Positions 9,895 through 54,187 are shown, counted from the stretch's first letter. The stretch is 64,000 nt of DNA from Candidatus Woesearchaeota archaeon (GCA_014729505.1 WJJS01000001.1:12938-76937); one strand, 5' to 3'. Numbers and translations: made by a program. Notes: generated by a model from the letters alone, not told the origin.

Positions 9895-11898
9895 TTATTT
9901 CGAACTTTTGAGATACCAATTCCTCAAACGGACAACCTTATCAACAACAGAAGGATACATATAGAACTGACCATATTTTTTTGCAGTTTTACTCAGCAAC
10001 TTATCAAGCTCAAGCATTTTGTACATCACCTGAATAGCGTCCTTTTTGCGATCGTATCTAAACAATAATTTGACAAGTTCGACGCCATCATCAGGATGTT
10101 TGGTCAACTTGTAAAAAATCTCCGCGTGAGAAACAGCCTTATCAGGATCGCCCTTTTGCGCATACAGTATAGAGATTGCTCGATGATACTGGGCAATCCA
10201 GGGCTTCTTTTTATGAAACTCATCGAGCAACTGCATTGCCTCGTCTATTCTACCCTGCGCATGAAGAATCTCTGAGTGCGCATGAACAAGATCAAACTCG
10301 CGAGTCCAAGAAGGTGCTTTATCAAGCAAAGACAGTCCCTTTTTTGGTTTTCCAACAAACGCGAGCAACACTGCTTCCCACAAAAGAAGAAACTCATTAT
10401 GAGGCGCCCTCTTACGAGCTTGTTGTACCACTCGAAGAGCGCGATCGTGATTACCGACGTGACTTAACGCGTTTATCACATGCTCTTCATATTGAAGATC
10501 CTTCTTGTGATATGGCAATCCCCTCTCAAGATACGCCAAAGCCTTTTTTGCTTTACCGTCACTGCGAGCAATACGACTGCCAGTAAGATAGCCAGTCTGA
10601 TCCTTAGGATACCACTTGATAATTTTGTCAGCTATCGGATACGCTTTGCCAGGCTTACCGAAATGATCGAAATCTTCGAGAAGAACATACAATGCGCGAA
10701 AGTTTCTGGGAAACTTCATAAGGACTTTTTTTGCCAGATCGTAATACGAGGTCCAGTCATTGCATTTTCGCAGACACTCAAGAGCAGAAAGCCAATTATC
10801 CAGGGTAGGAGGTAAGGAAAGAAACACCTTAGCAGCTTCGCGAAACCGGCCGAGCTCACGCAAGCAGGTAGCCTTTGTTTCAAGCAACACTATTGAAGAA
10901 TACTGCTTTAACTTTTTGTTTATCTCCCGCAATTTCTCCCGTTCATTGCCCTGCGTAAACAAGACATGAGGGTACAATGATGGAAGTTTGTCAATCTCAG
11001 AAGCTCTCTTCGCATATTCATGCGCCTTTTTATTCTTGCCGATGGAGAAATACAACGCAGTCAATCGGTTACACACATCAGAATTTTCAGGTTGCAAGAC
11101 TGCAAGTTTTTCATAGTCAGCAATAGCTTTCTTGACTTGATCTGTTACCATAAACAAATCAGCTCGGGCAGTGAGAATGCCTTCATCAGGACCCATCAGA
11201 GATATTGCATGTGTAAGAAACTTCTCCGCTTCACTGAATTTTCCTTCGGCTTTAAGAGAATCCACATACACCACGTAATCATATTCTGCAAATGAAAAAT
11301 TCTCTGCAAACGCTTGAGCAAAAAACTTGTTGGCCTTTTTATGCTCATGATTGTCAAAATACCGGCGTGCAAGATCAAGAAGACTGCGTGCAAGACCAAA
11401 CTTACGATGAATTAACTTCAAGGTCTGCTTATACTTCTTGTCATTTCGAGCATAATAATACAGGTGAGCGAGATCTTCATAATGAGACACTTTAAATGGT
11501 TCGAGCTTGATGACTTTCTTCATCGCGCTAAGAGCTTTAGAACTGTTTGTTTCCCTAAACAACCAATACACACGAAGAGGCCAATACACATTATTTGGTT
11601 GCCTCCTCATATACCTACGCAAAAGCCTTTCTTCACCAACAGCGTCGTGAAGCTCCCTATAGACATCAACTTTACTTTGCATAACATCAATTTCTTCAAG
11701 ACCGCACTCTCTTGCTTTGTCAAGGATTGCCAAAGCCTCCTTTTTCTTTTTGAGCTTAGAGAGTAACTCTGCTTTTCTCTGCAAATACAAAGGATGGCGA
11801 GGATTCTTTTCCAAAGCTCTATTGACGATGCGAAGCTGTTGACTAGTTGGTAAGTACGGATTAACAAACGGGAACACGGAATAGGTACAAGTCTTCAT
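9895..11898 (-). CDS. TPR-repeat protein
   Basis: It contains many 34-aa TPR-like repeats rich in A, L, Y and K. The track ORF extends to 12060, but the N-terminal extension looks non-coding, so the probable start is the MKTCTYSVFPF ATG near 11898. Confidence 0.6.
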   Translation of the reverse strand: MKTCTYSVFPFVNPYLPTSQQLRIVNRALEKNPRHPLYLQRKAELLSKLKKKKEALAILDKARECGLEEIDVMQSKVDVYRELHDAVGEERLLRRYMRRQPNNVYWPLRVYWLFRETNSSKALSAMKKVIKLEPFKVSHYEDLAHLYYYARNDKKYKQTLKLIHRKFGLARSLLDLARRYFDNHEHKKANKFFAQAFAENFSFAEYDYVVYVDSLKAEGKFSEAEKFLTHAISLMGPDEGILTARADLFMVTDQVKKAIADYEKLAVLQPENSDVCNRLTALYFSIGKNKKAHEYAKRASEIDKLPSLYPHVLFTQGNEREKLREINKKLKQYSSIVLLETKATCLRELGRFREAAKVFLSLPPTLDNWLSALECLRKCNDWTSYYDLAKKVLMKFPRNFRALYVLLEDFDHFGKPGKAYPIADKIIKWYPKDQTGYLTGSRIARSDGKAKKALAYLERGLPYHKKDLQYEEHVINALSHVGNHDRALRVVQQARKRAPHNEFLLLWEAVLLAFVGKPKKGLSLLDKAPSWTREFDLVHAHSEILHAQGRIDEAMQLLDEFHKKKPWIAQYHRAISILYAQKGDPDKAVSHAEIFYKLTKHPDDGVELVKLLFRYDRKKDAIQVMYKMLELDKLLSKTAKKYGQFYMYPSVVDKVVRLRNWYLKSSK

Positions 11899-17517: not shown

Positions 17518-17605
17518 AGTCTCTTTTTTATTGCAGGAAAAAGTTCAAAGTTATAAACTTTTCAGCGACAATTTTTTAAAGAATCCGATGAAAAAGCATC
17601 CGTAC

Positions 17606-17640
17606 GGGCCGGTAGCTCAACCTGGTAGAGTGCTCCGTTG
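17606..17640 (+). repeat. Direct repeat: duplicate of tRNA-Ala nt 1-35 (5' segment)
   Basis: GGGCCGGTAGCTCAACCTGGTAGAGTGCTCCGTTG is identical to 17730-17764. Confidence 0.85.
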
Positions 17641-17696
17641 CGATGCTTTCGCCCATCGACAGCGAGGTCCGATCTCACTTGCGTGAGATCCGACAG
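17641..17696 (+). repeat. Conserved ~55-nt hairpin element (copy 1), tRNA-associated
   Basis: CGATGCTTTCGCCCATCGACAGCGAGGTCCGATCTCACTTGCGTGAGATCCGACAG contains a 12-bp hairpin, TCCGATCTCAC/GTGAGATCCGAC. It matches 20053-20108 at about 85% identity. Confidence 0.7.
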
Positions 17697-17729
17697 TTTT
17701 ATGAATAGGTGTTTTTAGTATACGTTTAT

Positions 17730-17803
17730 GGGCCGGTAGCTCAACCTGGTAGAGTGCTCCGTTGGCTTCGGAGAGGCTGCGGGTTCAAATCCCGCTCGGT
17801 CCA
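17730..17803 (+). tRNA. tRNA-Ala (anticodon GGC), no intron
   Basis: Manual fold: acceptor GGGCCGG/TCGGTCC with G3:U70, D-arm GCTC-AACCTGGTA-GAGT, anticodon stem CTCCG/CGGAG with loop TTGGCTT, T-arm GCGGG-TTCAAAT-CCCGC and discriminator A. Confidence 0.85.
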
Positions 17804-17857
17804 TGGGTGGCCTTGACGCCCTTTTTTTGATCAAACTTTTTGTAAAAGTTTGCGGTT

Positions 17858-17879
17858 AGAGGCTGCGGGTTCAAATCCC
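17858..17879 (+). repeat. Partial duplicate of the tRNA-Ala 3' portion (variable arm plus 5' T-arm)
   Basis: AGAGGCTGCGGGTTCAAATCCC matches tRNA-Ala nt 44-65 but lacks the acceptor 3' strand. Confidence 0.7.
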
Positions 17880-18127
17880 TTCAGGCTCATCTTGAAACTG
17901 CTCGCGCAGTTTCGTGTTTTTTCACCTGCGATGAAATGCGGCACTCAACCAACTGCTGAAACCCCTCTCACACCATTCTTCAGACCAGTTCTCGACCACA
18001 CCATGGCCCGAACGGTGCGCTTGCTGCCTATAGTCGTCAACAACACGGTAGTTTTACCGGATCTTATCCTTCTTGTTTTACGATTTGTCCACAAGGTTTA
18101 TCAATGAGAGCGTGACAACACCATATT

Positions 18128-20031: not shown

Positions 20032-20046
20032 TGGTGGCGGAGTGGC
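20032..20046 (+). repeat. Direct repeat: duplicate of the tRNA-Met 5' end, including 4 nt of flank
   Basis: TGGTGGCGGAGTGGC is identical to 20132-20146. Confidence 0.8.
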
Positions 20047-20052
20047 ATATTC

Positions 20053-20108
20053 CGATGTTTTCCGCCATCGACACGGAGGTCCGATCTCGCTTGCGCGAGA
20101 TCCGACGG
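20053..20108 (+). repeat. Conserved ~55-nt hairpin element (copy 2), tRNA-associated
   Basis: CGATGTTTTCCGCCATCGACACGGAGGTCCGATCTCGCTTGCGCGAGATCCGACGG. Confidence 0.7.
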
Positions 20109-20135
20109 TAGTCAAGTAACACGAGTATCATTGGT

Positions 20136-20253
20136 GGCGGAGTGGCTTAGCCTGGTTAGAGCACCGCGCTCATAGGTCATACCTTTGAGCACTGAGCTTT
20201 CGAGCTATGACGAAGAAACGCGGGGGTCACGAGTTCAAATCTCGTCTCCGCCA
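20136..20253 (+). tRNA. tRNA-Met (CAT), elongator-like, with a 43-nt intron at 37/38
   Basis: Manual fold: acceptor GGCGGAG/CTCCGCC, D-arm GCTT-AGCCTGGTTA-GAGC, anticodon stem CCGCG with loop CTCATA|intron 20175-20217|A then CGCGG, variable GGGTC, T-arm ACGAG-TTCAAAT-CTCGT and discriminator A. Confidence 0.75.
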
Positions 20254-22355: not shown

Positions 22356-22413
22356 AAGAAAACCACGTTCAAATCCGTAAACTTCTTAACTGGGGCATTT
22401 TATGTGCATATAT

Positions 22414-22427
22414 GCCGACGTCGCATA
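22414..22427 (+). repeat. Direct repeat: duplicate of tRNA-Ser nt 1-14
   Basis: GCCGACGTCGCATA is also present at 22540 and 22756. Confidence 0.8.
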
Positions 22428-22437
22428 CTCTGCGTAT

Positions 22438-22462
22438 CGATGTTTTCCGCCATCGACACGGA
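22438..22462 (+). repeat. Partial copy (copy 3) of the conserved tRNA-associated element
   Basis: CGATGTTTTCCGCCATCGACACGGA matches the first 25 nt of the element at 20053. Confidence 0.6.
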
Positions 22463-22539
22463 CGCGCGGCATTCGCTATTGCTCAGCCCCGCAAGACACA
22501 AATCTTAAAAGGCAGTTCCTTTGTTACTCACTTATTCTT

Positions 22540-22718
22540 GCCGACGTCGCATAATCTGGTACGCTAAAAAACGCATTAGCGTTTTTGGCGCGCCGAAAAG
22601 CTTTGCTTTTCTCGCGTTGCGCCGGTCTTGAAAACCGGTTCCCTTGGGTGCTCGAAAATCTGCGATTTTCGGCACGTACAAAAGCTGACGCTTTTGTCCG
22701 TATCCCGTTTCAAATCCG
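22540..22718 (+). pseudogene. tRNA-Ser(TGA) pseudogene with two large insertions and a degenerate 3' end
   Basis: GCCGACGTCGCATAATCTGGTA, a 55-nt insertion, TTGCGCCGGTCTTGAAAACCGGTTCCCTTGGGT, a 52-nt insertion, then ATCCCGTTTCAAATCCG. The acceptor 3' strand is missing. Confidence 0.6.
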
Positions 22719-22755
22719 TAAACTTCTTAACTAGTGGCATTTCATGCGCATATAT

Positions 22756-22837
22756 GCCGACGTCGCATAATCTGGTATTGCGCCGGTCTTGAAAACCGGT
22801 TCCCTTGGGTATCCCGGTTCAAATCCGGGCGTCGGCG
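22756..22837 (+). tRNA. tRNA-Ser (TGA), class II with a long variable arm, no intron
   Basis: Manual fold: acceptor GCCGACG/CGTCGGC, anticodon stem CCGGT/ACCGG with loop CTTGAAA, variable arm TTCCCTTGGGTAT, T-arm CCCGG-TTCAAAT-CCGGG and discriminator G. Confidence 0.8.
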
Positions 22838-22891
22838 TTTCTATGACGCGAAAGCGTCATCCCATTTTTGAAGTAGTGATTTGAACCGGGG
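22833..22891 (+). repeat. Left copy of a perfect 59-nt direct repeat (last 5 nt of tRNA-Ser plus 54 nt downstream); att-like
   Basis: CGGCGTTTCTATGACGCGAAAGCGTCATCCCATTTTTGAAGTAGTGATTTGAACCGGGG is identical to 23742-23800. Confidence 0.85.
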
Positions 22892-23068
22892 CCAGTCAAG
22901 CTTTGCTTGACGTTGTCCTGGTTTCAAATCCGGGCGTCGGCGTTGTGGGCGCGTTAGCGCTCTTTTTTGTTGTTGTGATTTGAACCGGGGCCAGTCAAGC
23001 TTTGCTTGACGTTGTCCTGGTTTCAAATCCGGGTGTCGGCGTTGTGGGCGCGTTAGCGCTCTTTTTTT
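22843..23068 (+). repeat. Tandem repeat, ~99 nt x ~2.3. Each unit contains an inverted T-arm-like palindrome and ends with the tRNA-Ser 3' end sequence.
   Basis: The unit is TTGTGGGCGCGTTAGCGCTCTTTTTTGTTGTTGTGATTTGAACCGGGGCCAGTCAAGCTTTGCTTGACGTTGTCCTGGTTTCAAATCCGGG(C/T)GTCGGCG. GGGCGCGTTAGCGCTC followed by a T-run is terminator-like. Confidence 0.8.
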
Positions 23069-23135
23069 GATTGCTGCATCATTTCGAATCTAAACCATAA
23101 CCTTTATAAACTATGGCCACTATAGTAACTATAGT

Positions 23136-23741: not shown

Positions 23742-23800
23742 ACCATACACCGGCGTTTCTATGACGCGAAAGCGTCATCCCATTTTTGAAGTAGTGATTT
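23742..23800 (+). repeat. Right copy of the perfect 59-nt direct repeat
   Basis: Identical to 22833-22891. Confidence 0.85.
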
Positions 23801-23854
23801 GAACCGGGGATCTTTGCTTGGCAGTATGCTGATGAAAATACGGCGTTTCAAGAA

Positions 23855-38088: not shown

Positions 38089-38127
38089 ATTTTTTTTCCT
38101 TTTTCGTATATGTGAATGCAATTAACA
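38087..38127 (+). repeat. 41-nt direct repeat (copy 1), a duplicated ferredoxin 3'-end remnant
   Basis: TTTTTCCTTTTTCGTATATGTGAATGCAATTAACAGGAC is identical to 38219-38259. On the - strand it encodes a remnant ...PVNCIHIYEKGKKI*. Confidence 0.75.
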
Positions 38128-38209
38128 GGACGAGCATTCTGCCGCTGTTTTTGCCCAGCGGTTGCAATGCGTGACGCTCGGCTTTGCCTCGATCACGCAG
38201 TTAGAATTT

Positions 38210-38467
38210 CTAGATTCTTTTTTTTCCTTTTTCGTATATGTGAATGCAATTAACAGGACAACACTCTGCGGCGTCCATATTATCTTTGAGATCATCGAGT
38301 TCGAGATGTTCTTCAAGACCGACCTTTTTGGCTCCCTTCAAATCAACTTTGCCATCATCACTTATCGTCCAAAATTCTTCAGCAATAGCAGTACAACTAC
38401 CACAACCAATACATTCAGAACGCTCATGAACAATCCTGAACTTTTTATCTTTGTTTTTCTCAGGCAT
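38210..38467 (-). CDS. 4Fe-4S ferredoxin
   Basis: ECIGCGSCTAI plus AECCPVNC. The protein is 85 aa. Confidence 0.75.
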   Translation of the reverse strand: MPEKNKDKKFRIVHERSECIGCGSCTAIAEEFWTISDDGKVDLKGAKKVGLEEHLELDDLKDNMDAAECCPVNCIHIYEKGKKRI

Positions 38468-42882: not shown

Positions 42883-43659
42883 ATGCACAAAGCATTAACG
42901 ATAGTATTGCTAGGAATTCTTCTAGTTGGATGCTCAACAACACTAGACACGTCGTCGACAAATCCGCCAACAGCGCCGCACTCAACTTCAAGTCCTCCAA
43001 CAACACAACACCCCGCAACAGAGAACAATTCACAACACACCACAACACAAAATGATTCACAATATCCGACAACGCAGAACGATTCACAACACACGGCAAC
43101 CAATGACTACGTTGCGGGACGAGAACTCTTCAAACTACAACGGGATTCAGACAGTGCACTGGGACAACGAGTAACAGACTTTTTCCCACTTCCTGCAGGA
43201 GCAGTTCTTGTCGAGACAAGACATTTTGGAGCGCAACAATTCAAAGCAAATCTTGTATCAAAAACAGGAGACATATTTCCTTTAGTCAATGATGAAGGAT
43301 ACATTCTTACCACTACGCTGCACTCTTTTGCGGCAGGCCAGTACCTGCTAGACATGATCATCAATGGCGAAGTTACCTTTATCATACGAACACCGGACAT
43401 AGAAGAAGCAACATCATGGAGCGGAGCCGGCAAGAAGTTCACCCCCTTCTTTACACTTTCAGGAACCAACACCTTTGAGATGTCGTTTCAAGGAAATGGA
43501 TTATACATCGTGTCACTATACAATCAAGCAGGAGAACGCATCGCCGTACTTGCACAAGGCGACACCACAGAAAAAACAAACACTGACGTAACCGTACCAC
43601 AAGGACTCTATCTGTTAGGTATAGAATCAACAGGAGTCTGGGACATACAACTCAAATAA
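42883..43659 (+). CDS. Lipoprotein with a Thr/Gln-rich repeat linker
   Basis: MHKALTIVLLGILLVGCSTT (lipobox LVGC) and repeats TTQNDSQ(Y/H)(P/T)TTQNDSQHTAT. Confidence 0.55.
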   Translation: MHKALTIVLLGILLVGCSTTLDTSSTNPPTAPHSTSSPPTTQHPATENNSQHTTTQNDSQYPTTQNDSQHTATNDYVAGRELFKLQRDSDSALGQRVTDFFPLPAGAVLVETRHFGAQQFKANLVSKTGDIFPLVNDEGYILTTTLHSFAAGQYLLDMIINGEVTFIIRTPDIEEATSWSGAGKKFTPFFTLSGTNTFEMSFQGNGLYIVSLYNQAGERIAVLAQGDTTEKTNTDVTVPQGLYLLGIESTGVWDIQLK

Positions 43660-46024: not shown

Positions 46025-46106
46025 TCCCCGCCCCCGGACTCAGCGTTAACCTGCGGTTAACTGGCTGCAGAAAACACTTCGTGTTTTTGCAGTGAACCAG
46101 GAACCT
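46025..46106 (-). repeat. Partial duplicate of the tRNA-Tyr 3' portion (variable arm to 3' end) with a 50-nt hairpin-rich insertion in the T-loop
   Basis: The minus strand reads AGGTTCCTGGTTCA, then a 50-nt insert, then AGTCCGGGGGCGGGGA. Perfect palindrome TGAACCAGGAACCTGGTTCA is on the plus strand at 46093-46112. Confidence 0.65.
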
Positions 46107-46144
46107 GGTTCAAGCCTTGTAAGATATTGTTTCCAAAAAGAAAA

Positions 46145-46268
46145 GTCCCCGCCCCCGGACTTGAACCAGGAACCTCGCGGTGACGGCTGACTCGCCTTCA
46201 CGTCTCGAGCGTTGCTCGGAATCAGTTGAGTTTCTACAGCCGCGCGCTCTACCATTGAGCTAGGCGGG
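46145..46268 (-). tRNA. tRNA-Tyr (GTA) with a 51-nt intron at 37/38
   Basis: Manual fold on the minus strand: acceptor CCCCGCC/GGCGGGG (C1:G72, archaeal Tyr identity), D-arm GCTC-AATGGTA-GAGC, anticodon stem CGCGG with loop CTGTAG|intron|A then CCGCG, T-arm CCTGG-TTCAAGT-CCGGG and discriminator A. Confidence 0.75.
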
Positions 46269-53574: not shown

Positions 53575-53901
53575 TAACAGTAGTTTTTTTTTTCGAGAAT
53601 ACAGGTTGTTGCGTTACAGGTTATACCTCAAGCCAGTACCAGAATTTTCTACCGTAGCGCTTATCGCAGCCCTGATGGTAGTTGTTGGAGGTTTCTTGAT
53701 AGTAAGGCGGCAAGCTTAAGGATTTTGGCCTAATCCGCTCAATTTTGGCCCGTTATCACCAACTAGGCCTTAAAAAGGGTAAGATTTATAAACCCCCTCA
53801 AGTTTTTTTGGAAAAAATGGCGGGTAGACATAATTCTCACTGAACTGCAAACTATGTGAGTGAGACGTCTATCACACGTGAGGAGTCATAATGACCCTTG
53901 C

Positions 53902-54025
53902 GCCCTGGTAGTGTAGTGGCCTATCATGAAGCCCTGTCGAGACGAAAACCGTCGCATAAAGGCTTCGACCCGGGTTCAAAGACGGCGTCGGGTTAACCGA
54001 TCCGCTGAAATTCCCGGCCAGGGCG
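53902..54025 (+). tRNA. tRNA-Asp (GTC) with two introns: 20 nt at 37/38 and 30 nt in the T-loop (59/60)
   Basis: The exons read GCCCTGG TA GTGT AGTGGCCTA TCAT G AAGCC CTGTCG|...|A GGCTT CGAC CCGGG TTCAAA|...|T CCCGG CCAGGGC G. They are near-identical to a typical archaeal tRNA-Asp. Confidence 0.7.
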
Positions 54026-54063
54026 TGTGCTCAGCATCCAGCATGCTGGGAGTATACAACAAA

Positions 54064-54179
54064 GGGCCGGTAGCTCAGCCTGGTAGAGCACCTGACTTTT
54101 ATGAAAGTCAAGGACATCAGGTGGTCGCGAGTTCAAAACGATCCCGCGTATGCGGTTCGTGAACGTCTCGTCCGGCCCA
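54064..54179 (+). tRNA. tRNA-Lys (TTT) with two introns: ~14 nt at 37/38 and ~28 nt in the T-loop (59/60)
   Basis: GGGCCGG TA GCTC AGCCTGGTA GAGC A CCTGA CTTTTA|...|A TCAGG TGGTC GCGAG TTCAAA|...|T CTCGT CCGGCCC A. Confidence 0.65.
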
Positions 54180-54187
54180 TTTTTACT

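Follow-up and report, generated by a model that had tools for sequence, protein, structure and literature searches.

We analyzed a 64,000-nucleotide (nt) stretch of DNA from Candidatus Woesearchaeota archaeon, a member of the DPANN archaea (GCA_014729505.1 WJJS01000001.1:12938-76937), hereafter called the window. The subject is an alanine transfer RNA (tRNA) gene accompanied by partial copies of itself, together with a short folded sequence, the core, that separates this gene from its upstream copy and recurs at three other gene ends. The window is a housekeeping stretch of an archaeal chromosome that encodes EF-1alpha, S10, EF-2 and RNA polymerase subunits; its GC skew keeps a single sign throughout. 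The flanking HAD hydrolase has a 100% identical counterpart in a Candidatus Woesearchaeota metagenome-assembled genome (MAG), the next relatives showing only about 60% amino acid (aa) identity, and EF-1alpha is 72-74% identical to its counterparts in Woesearchaeota and Nanoarchaeota MAGs. tRNA genes were called with ARAGORN and with Rfam covariance models (Rfam 15); those of the window have no encoded CCA and carry many introns.

The intact gene, tRNA-Ala(GGC), lies at 17730-17803 (+), is intron-less, carries G3:U70 and lacks an encoded CCA (ARAGORN; Rfam tRNA, 57.5 bits). Upstream, a displaced partial copy (17603-17640, +) consists of three leader nt followed by tRNA nt 1-35. As the sequence-only reading of this DNA had reported, nt 1-35 recur 124 nt upstream: 17606-17640 exactly repeats 17730-17764 with that period, and two of the three leader bases also match the intact gene (TAC/TAT). 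The TATA-like TTTTTTAAAG, at about -34 to -25 before the displaced copy, is a putative promoter at canonical distance. The displaced copy is followed by the core, made of module 1 (17641-17665, +), whose helices S1 and S2 co-vary among four copies, and hairpin A (17667-17694, +). The latter had been described as a perfect 12-base-pair (bp) hairpin; the fold gives instead 3 bp, a C.C mismatch and 8 bp, closed by the loop UUGC (GCAA on the other strand). A spacer (17697-17729, +) then leads to the intact gene. It does not significantly resemble its counterparts at the other loci and holds a second TATA-like sequence, TTTTATGAATA, placed at -33 to -23 of the intact tRNA-Ala and likewise a putative promoter. 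On the other side of the gene, the trailer (17804-17857, +) consists of a hairpin with a T7 run and the palindrome CAAACTTTT/AAAAGTTTG, and is followed by a partial 3' copy (17858-17879, +) that covers the end of the anticodon stem, the variable loop and most of the T arm. This copy is an exact repeat of the 22-nt AGAGGCTGCGGGTTCAAATCCC (17772-17793) with a period of 86 nt, as had been noticed before, and starts 54 nt past the gene end rather than the 55 nt first given. Behind it, a degenerate acceptor-like TTCAGGCTCA, a hairpin and a T6 run extend to about 17925. Both repeats go beyond chance (0/100 shuffles; E 2.5e-14 and 1.5e-6).

The 56-nt motif of the tRNA-Ala locus has a single exact occurrence in the window. 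A covariance model was built from this copy and the one at a tRNA(CAT) gene, run without filters and later rebuilt to include a copy at a ferredoxin gene. By this model the family comprises four copies of a core of about 56 nt, all on the + strand, of which three have a 5' tRNA gene fragment (Ala, CAT or Ser) before them and one lies between repeats of the ferredoxin 3' end; the Ser and ferredoxin copies had been overlooked by the sequence-only reading. At the tRNA(CAT) locus, the displaced partial copy (20032-20046, +) comprises four leader nt and tRNA nt 1-11, an exact 15-nt repeat with a period of 100 nt, and the only clear TATA box, by sequence reading, appears to lie upstream of it. The second core (20053-20108, +; module 1 at 20053-20077, hairpin A at 20079-20106) stands upstream of tRNA(CAT), a gene with a 45-nt intron (20136-20253) that ARAGORN calls only with introns allowed and then under a different assignment. 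Ala and CAT cores are identical at 49/57 positions (86%; CAT copy 20053-20109). A similarity of about 85% had been proposed for the whole insert, and it holds over these first 57 nt or so, the last 30 nt or so being unrelated.

At the tRNA-Ser locus, repeat finding delineates a displaced copy of about nt 1-24 (22413-22437, +) with one mismatch and one indel. Here the duplication takes in the promoter region from 22368 onward, as part of a 66-nt repeat with 22709-22774 (92%). The third core (22438-22492, +), found by repeat finding and by the covariance model, has a module 1 (22438-22462) identical to that of the CAT copy at 25/25 positions; its second hairpin has a sequence of its own, yet keeps the arrangement of 3 bp, C.C mismatch and 3 bp. 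The fourth core (38143-38199, +; S1 CGCTG/CAGCG, S2 TTGC/GCAA, hairpin TGCGTGA/TCACGCA) was found by the covariance model (38143-38203; E 0.002, and E 2e-11 once the model had been rebuilt with this copy included) and shares only about half of the core positions with the other copies. It sits exactly between 100% identical 42-nt repeats at 38090-38131 and 38218-38259. The left repeat begins a displaced ferredoxin 3' end (38090-38142, +; repeat finding) that runs on into a diverged continuation, and the right one corresponds to the last 42 coding nt of the intact ferredoxin gene (Fer4_15 family match; 38210-38467, -), whose last three codons fall within the insert. Because one copy lies between gene-end repeats of ferredoxin, the core is neither specific to tRNA genes nor a general tRNA leader. 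A ubiquitous tRNA leader without duplication is also excluded by tRNA genes that have no core, namely tRNA-Tyr and two multi-intron genes (53.9-54.2 kb) in the window and the orthologous tRNA-Ala genes of four other genomes.

All four loci (4/4) have the same order: outer flank, displaced partial copy of the gene end, core, non-conserved spacer of 18-46 nt, intact gene. Module 1 abuts the interior, broken edge of the displaced copy each time. The exact repeats are separated by 86 nt (Ala), 85 nt (CAT), 86 nt (ferredoxin) and 106 nt (Ser), and measure 35-38, 15, 42 and about 20 nt (up to 66), respectively. The duplicated tRNA segments stop at differing points (Ala at about nt 35, CAT at 11-17, Ser at 19-24), and the insert junctions (TTG|CGATG, TTC|CGATG, TAT|CGATG and TGC|CGCTG) have no motif in common. 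Read directly and in folds, the insert ends show no terminal inverted repeats, and the termini are unpaired. The proposal of a small non-autonomous element aimed at tRNA 5' halves thus keeps its first part, which we regard as the better supported of the two options raised from the sequence; the targeting does not stand, given the variable end points and the copy at the ferredoxin 3' end. The spacers in front of tRNA-Ala and of an intron-bearing tRNA-Ser copy appear to supply new TATA boxes. The inserts at 17641-17726, 20047-20131 and 38132-38217 measure 86, 85 and 86 nt, with the core offset from the left repeat by 0, 6 and 11 nt. A circularly permuted element of fixed length was considered and rejected, the flanks of the three 85-86-nt inserts not being homologous.

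The ferredoxin locus gives the clearest view of the edges of a duplication. On both sides its perfect 42-nt block passes into similar, diverged sequence: at one edge GAGCATTCTGCCGC aligns with AACACTCTGCGGC (10/13 matches), and at the other CTAGA aligns with CTAGATTC. The displaced copy retains the native junction with a convergent epimerase gene, and the C terminus encoded by the gene-joined copy reads KKRI instead of KKI. Diverged edges of this kind are expected if an incoming, diverged copy had recombined with the resident gene end; the same pattern would arise from an older duplication homogenized centrally by gene conversion. Similar hints at the Ala and CAT loci are weaker and not significant alone.

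Within the core, the 25-nt module 1 contains two overlapping helices, which could form either an H-type pseudoknot or alternative hairpins, and is followed by the variable hairpin A. S1 is CGATG/CATCG, replaced by CGCTG/CAGCG in the ferredoxin copy, and S2 is TCGC/GCGA (Ala), TCCG/CGGA (CAT and Ser) or TTGC/GCAA (ferredoxin). Hairpin A varies in sequence and length, with the C.C mismatch after the third pair in 3/4 copies. In an alignment of the four copies fitted to the structure model, 69/69 pair cells are Watson-Crick and none is G-U; 9/20 pairs change on both sides and none on one side only, which 0/500 shuffles reach, and the signal collapses when partners are slid. The comparison of the Ala and CAT copies is independent of model fitting: six of their eight differences form three compensatory pairs, including an A-T to G-C change in hairpin A.

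Since no G-U pair occurs, both strands fold equally well, and the two hairpins, which are not located at the two insert ends, also fold as DNA. At the tRNA loci the core is in sense orientation downstream of a putative promoter; at the ferredoxin locus it follows T8 and T5 runs (+ strand) and lies antisense in the 3' region of the gene. Rfam returned only tRNA matches, with no family overlapping the core even at E up to 5. A bulge-helix-bulge was not visible at the junctions in minimum-energy folds of the Ala and CAT precursors, no dedicated motif search having been run. Watson-Crick-only pairing, an inconsistent orientation to genes and the lack of an Rfam match or visible bulge-helix-bulge favor an element that acts at the DNA level. 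Candidates from known RNA classes were rejected: the defining motifs of C/D or H/ACA guides and of small ribozymes are wanting in sequence and folds. A mimic of the tRNA(CAT) acceptor end was also discarded, as the match, TCCGCCA, is only 7 nt long and about 0.7 such matches are expected by chance (estimate).

Searches for further copies covered several collections. Exact-pattern scans gave 0 matches in genome contigs and three in metagenome contigs, all chance occurrences in eukaryotic telomere-like repeats. Two patterns gave 0 matches in viral contigs, a BLAST comparison with plasmids and phages was equally negative, and a covariance-model search of 36-41 DPANN loci found nothing. In the window, one core-like match (11014-11057, -; E 0.007) lies inside a 721-aa coding region, with S1 mismatched and no flanking repeat, and was set aside as probably chance.

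We then compared the orthologous tRNA-Ala(GGC) gene, upstream of the HAD gene, in four genomes (L084, L085, L086 and L087). With the covariance model, neither the 5' fragment nor the core was found at any of these loci, so the comparison with empty sites that the sequence-only reading had called for yields four tRNA-Ala loci without the core, in relatives with 55-59% aa identity in the flanking protein. In L084 the gene is interrupted by two shorter introns, one in the D region and one in the T region; in L085, L086 and L087 it has a T-loop intron of about 100 nt and a normal TATA box upstream. The genes with the long T-loop intron span 2278-2441 in L085 and 2266-2445 in L087, and the window tRNA-Ala has no introns. 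A likeness of the core to the T-loop intron of L085 (GCGAGGTC[C/T]GAT, 12/13, estimated p~0.007) was not supported by the covariance model and was dropped. LAGLIDADG_3 open reading frames (ORFs) occur at or near the orthologous tRNA-Ala/HAD/HIT locus in L084 (3098-3835) and L087 (4451-5212); that of L084 ends at a TAG made by tRNA-Ala nt 8-10 and has no repeat flanking it.

Other DPANN loci contain gene-end duplications of a comparable layout. In L004, L008 and L011 the last 17-27 nt of rps10, including the stop codon, are duplicated around hairpin-rich inserts of 80-229 nt, such that the rps10 3' end is present two or three times (L004 11686-11950, L008 11662-11793, L011 7248-7545). The same layout recurs at a further gene end of L004 and at the tRNA-Ser 3' end of L014. 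The inserts are unrelated to the core, and most of them, those at rps10 included, fold into two hairpins. In L008 the rps10 insert ends in a TATA-like GTTAATTG, which precedes the start codon of the following gene by about 32-25 nt. Taken as raw counts, short-range direct repeats were rejected as a mark of DPANN, being no fewer in bacterial control loci; only the combination of a hairpin insert with a repeat across a gene end can be informative.

Several other tRNA loci of the window are fragmented. The tRNA-Ser(TGA) locus (22356-23110) is a mosaic of the 5' fragment with its core, a second copy, the intact gene (22756-22837) and two 99-nt tandem units. The second copy (22540-22718) has two intron-like inserts, and its T arm breaks off after TTCAAATCCG. 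Each 99-nt unit contains an inverted T-arm piece and the 3' end of the tRNA, together with a 7-bp hairpin and a hairpin that resembles a terminator. Pairing over 8 bp + 5 bp is possible between the unit leader and the end of the broken copy, so that a trans-joined tRNA is conceivable. From the last 5 nt of tRNA-Ser, exact 59-nt direct repeats (22833-22891 and 23751-23809) flank an 859-bp segment with ORFs of 66 aa (weak DUF7557 match) and 113 aa (no family), which looks like a small integrase-less cassette at a tRNA 3' end. The tRNA-Tyr(GTA) gene contains a 52-nt intron, and a second copy of its 3' part lies downstream (46025-46145, -). The T loop of this second copy is split by a 52-nt two-hairpin insert, and the copy is preceded by an inverted T-arm piece and a promoter-like AACAATATCTTACAAGGC with 17/20 matches to the tRNA-Ser spacer promoter. 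The 3' fragments of tRNA-Ala, tRNA-Ser and tRNA-Tyr, which have the mirror-image layout and no core, are probably displaced older gene ends. Two further tRNA genes (53900-54027 and 54064-54180), separated by about 35 nt and probably co-transcribed, each have two intron-like inserts, one near the anticodon loop and one in the T loop. Probably Asp(GTC) and Lys(TTT), neither is called by ARAGORN, and Rfam picks up only a part of the second, with a score under its threshold. Apart from tRNA genes, at least three imperfect 27-nt tandem repeats (43004-43100; CACAACAC...GAACAATT) lie inside an ORF at 42883-43659.

On balance we lean toward reading the core family as a gene-less structured insertion element that acts at the DNA level and whose arrival goes with duplication or replacement of a gene end. 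Movement of the element, and the mechanism behind it, are what we infer. A non-autonomous mobile DNA would insert into the terminal part of a gene, and the invaded gene end would be duplicated or replaced, such that the gene stays functional. This could happen in two ways. The resident gene end could recombine with a diverged copy of that end carried on the incoming DNA, as Campbell-type integration or as end replacement, and recombination between the two repeats would then free a unit of 100-128 nt. Alternatively, insertion at widely staggered breaks would create long target duplications of variable length, and copies would survive only where the duplicate regenerates the gene end; this proposal would explain why every copy in a compact genome sits at a gene terminus.

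Several observations weigh against such an element. A scan of ten ORFs beside the copies revealed no gene for a transposase, reverse transcriptase or integrase. Terminal inverted repeats, fixed-length duplication and a common target motif are all missing from the inserts, which match no characterized transposition chemistry. All core copies are known from this window, so mobility is deduced from one genome, and as the closest genomes have about 60% aa identity in the flanking protein, the empty sites are not recent ones. The covariation counts are inflated by an alignment that was fitted to the structure model. Finally, the four cores are strongly diverged, yet the repeats that flank them are perfect, which requires either that the cores came recently and from diverse sources or that gene conversion acted on the repeats.

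A different origin for the same layout would be that the cores are scars of larger viruses or plasmids that carried an integrase and used surrogate gene ends as attP, deletion or aberrant excision having left the att-adjacent core. A partial copy, foreign DNA and an intact gene form the classical layout of integrated elements in archaea (PMC9897764, PMC3293823), and tRNA genes are the main sites here as well (Ala 5' and 3', CAT 5', Ser 5' and 3', Tyr 3'); the 859-bp segment with its two small ORFs, between exact 59-nt repeats at the tRNA-Ser 3' end, also speaks for scars. We nevertheless regard scars as unlikely: three independent deletions would hardly all leave 85-86 nt, conservation is confined to one side of the residue, and no integrase fragment lies near any copy. 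As the crossover position differs from tRNA to tRNA and a protein gene is involved too, one integrase family would need four specificities. The att remnants of integration and excision first proposed for the tRNA-Ala locus agree with the layout, but not with the lack of an integrase, of anything kb-sized between the repeats and of a common crossover, nor with inserts of 85-86 nt. Repair without mobility or function is another source of duplicated ends. Breaks or stalled forks in gene ends could be mended by template switching or gene conversion, which would duplicate the end and copy in hairpin-prone filler from elsewhere in the genome. The identity of the Ser module 1 to the CAT copy 2.4 kb away, followed by abrupt divergence, has the look of a short templated patch; three copies fall inside 5 kb, the tRNA-Ser locus is pieced together from fragments, and LAGLIDADG endonuclease genes adjoin the orthologous locus in related genomes. 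Filler, however, would not retain two helices by compensation among diverged copies, nor repeat the same order and orientation four times, and the ferredoxin copy, with about half of the core positions in common, is not a recent copy of the other three. A by-product of repair thus seems rather improbable to us.

The compensatory changes are also what one would see in a functional structured RNA, in which fragment and core would be read from the retained promoter and could serve as a small RNA, as a leader or decoy while tRNA is processed, or as a split-tRNA 5' half. Split tRNAs are known in DPANN relatives, the displaced copies at Ala, CAT and Ser keep a plausible promoter as far as can be read from the sequence, and that of CAT pairs with the core over 10 bp. 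This pairing, however, depends on a 7-nt match, and about 0.7 such matches are expected by chance (estimate); an intact tRNA gene stands beside every tRNA fragment. One and the same trailer follows three different tRNA fragments, which speaks against a specific trans-splicing partner, and no partner for a specific trailer-leader pairing was seen within the 64-kb window. Together with the lack of an Rfam match and of a bulge-helix-bulge at the junctions in the folds, the absence of G-U among 69 pair cells and the antisense position after T8/T5 runs at the ferredoxin locus, where strand and context are inconsistent with the other copies, this makes an RNA function improbable in our view. An archaeal tRNA intron, transposed or left as remains and removable by the splicing endonuclease, has very little probability. 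The window and related genomes are rich in introns at unusual tRNA positions, and Fujishima and co-workers reportedly found in 2010 related introns at different tRNA positions in Thermoproteales. Against this, the tRNA restarts at nt 1 after the core instead of continuing, the core is unlike the introns of the window, and no bulge-helix-bulge was seen at the boundaries in folds, again with no dedicated motif search run; the ferredoxin copy, outside any RNA gene, contradicts an intron directly.

The preferred reading, a gene-less insertion element, bears on an old question, the origin of the split, permuted and intron-rich tRNA genes of archaea, for which integration of mobile elements is the leading idea. 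The documented cases of integration are kb-sized; here the same layout is found at one protein gene as well as three tRNA genes, with a gene-less insert of less than 110 nt and a conserved fold. Provided that the element moves, it would offer a minimal system to test gene-end duplication or replacement, and it would explain the stray tRNA fragments that confuse the annotation of DPANN genomes. The rps10 and other gene-end inserts hint that two-hairpin inserts at gene ends may be common in DPANN. More speculatively, and with clear reservations, DPANN may harbor a class of mobile elements not described so far, gene-less, tiny (about 60-130 nt) and folded into two hairpins, that enter the last few dozen nt of genes, duplicate or replace the end, and perhaps move as a 100-130-nt piece released by repeat recombination. 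Such a class, if true, would actively feed, on a small scale, the formation of tRNA gene fragments and the replacement of promoters, and perhaps the emergence of tRNA genes that are split or free of introns. Even if the inserts are only repair debris, they would mark tRNA loci as fragile sites in small genomes.

Compared with known systems, the family lacks defining features of split tRNAs, bulge-helix-bulge introns, integron attC sites, miniature inverted-repeat transposable elements (MITEs), IS200/IS605 derivatives and integrase-type elements. Split tRNAs of the Nanoarchaeum type differ in that intact tRNA-Ala, tRNA(CAT) and tRNA-Ser genes lie here 100-342 nt downstream of the fragments. Integron attC sites do not correspond either: no RYYYAAC or GTTRRRY was found in the four cores and their junctions, and no integron integrase among the scanned ORFs. 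MITEs are bounded by terminal inverted repeats and by target duplications that are short and of constant length. IS200/IS605 derivatives integrate beside a fixed motif of 4-5 nt without duplicating the target, and a common orientation, as seen among the four cores, is typical of single-strand transposition. IS200/IS605 derivatives also have subterminal imperfect hairpins able to fold in single-stranded DNA; the core has two hairpins that fold as DNA, one with the C.C mismatch in 3/4 copies, and these do not sit at the two insert ends. The core family resembles both in being short, ORF-less, structured and present in several copies; it differs from MITEs by inserts without terminal inverted repeats and by duplications of 15-66 nt that are all different, and from IS200/IS605 derivatives by the presence of long duplications and the lack of a shared junction motif. 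A more distant parallel comes from fungal mitochondria, for which Paquin and colleagues reportedly described, in 1994 and 2000, double-hairpin elements as well as gene-end duplications linked to endonucleases. In the endonuclease-linked cases the insert is said to bring a replacement terminus, with the original terminus pushed downstream as a fragment. The likeness would be that of small mobile two-hairpin units in compact genomes; the differences are another domain of life, no common sequence and no endonuclease gene at the four loci here.

The closest parallels are archaeal. SSV-type and pNOB8-type elements and the 9-23-kb islands of Thermococcales, which are flanked by partial tRNA copies (PMC9897764), share with the present loci the direct repeats of a partial and a complete gene and the surrogate end that keeps the gene intact. 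Elements of these kinds, however, encode an integrase, and what they duplicate is usually a defined stretch of about 40-50 nt on the 3' side. Our loci do have gene-end direct repeats (35, 15, 42 and about 20-66 nt); a shared crossover site is absent, no recombinase family occurs among the ten ORFs scanned near the copies, and the 15-66-nt repeats have varying end points, lie mostly on the 5' side and enclose 85-106 nt. In Caldiarchaeum, a tRNA-Thr 5' fragment is followed by a 1,868-bp insertion with a putative recombinase and then by an intact tRNA, of which the insertion contributes the first 27 nt; the insertion has six related copies, and its authors propose it as a route to tRNA gene disruption (PMC3293823). 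The arrangement is alike, a 5' fragment with the original upstream region, an insert, and an intact tRNA whose 5' part is supplied by the insert, whereas the inserts described here measure 85-106 nt, have no ORF, are built around a folded 56-nt core and include one copy at the end of a protein gene.

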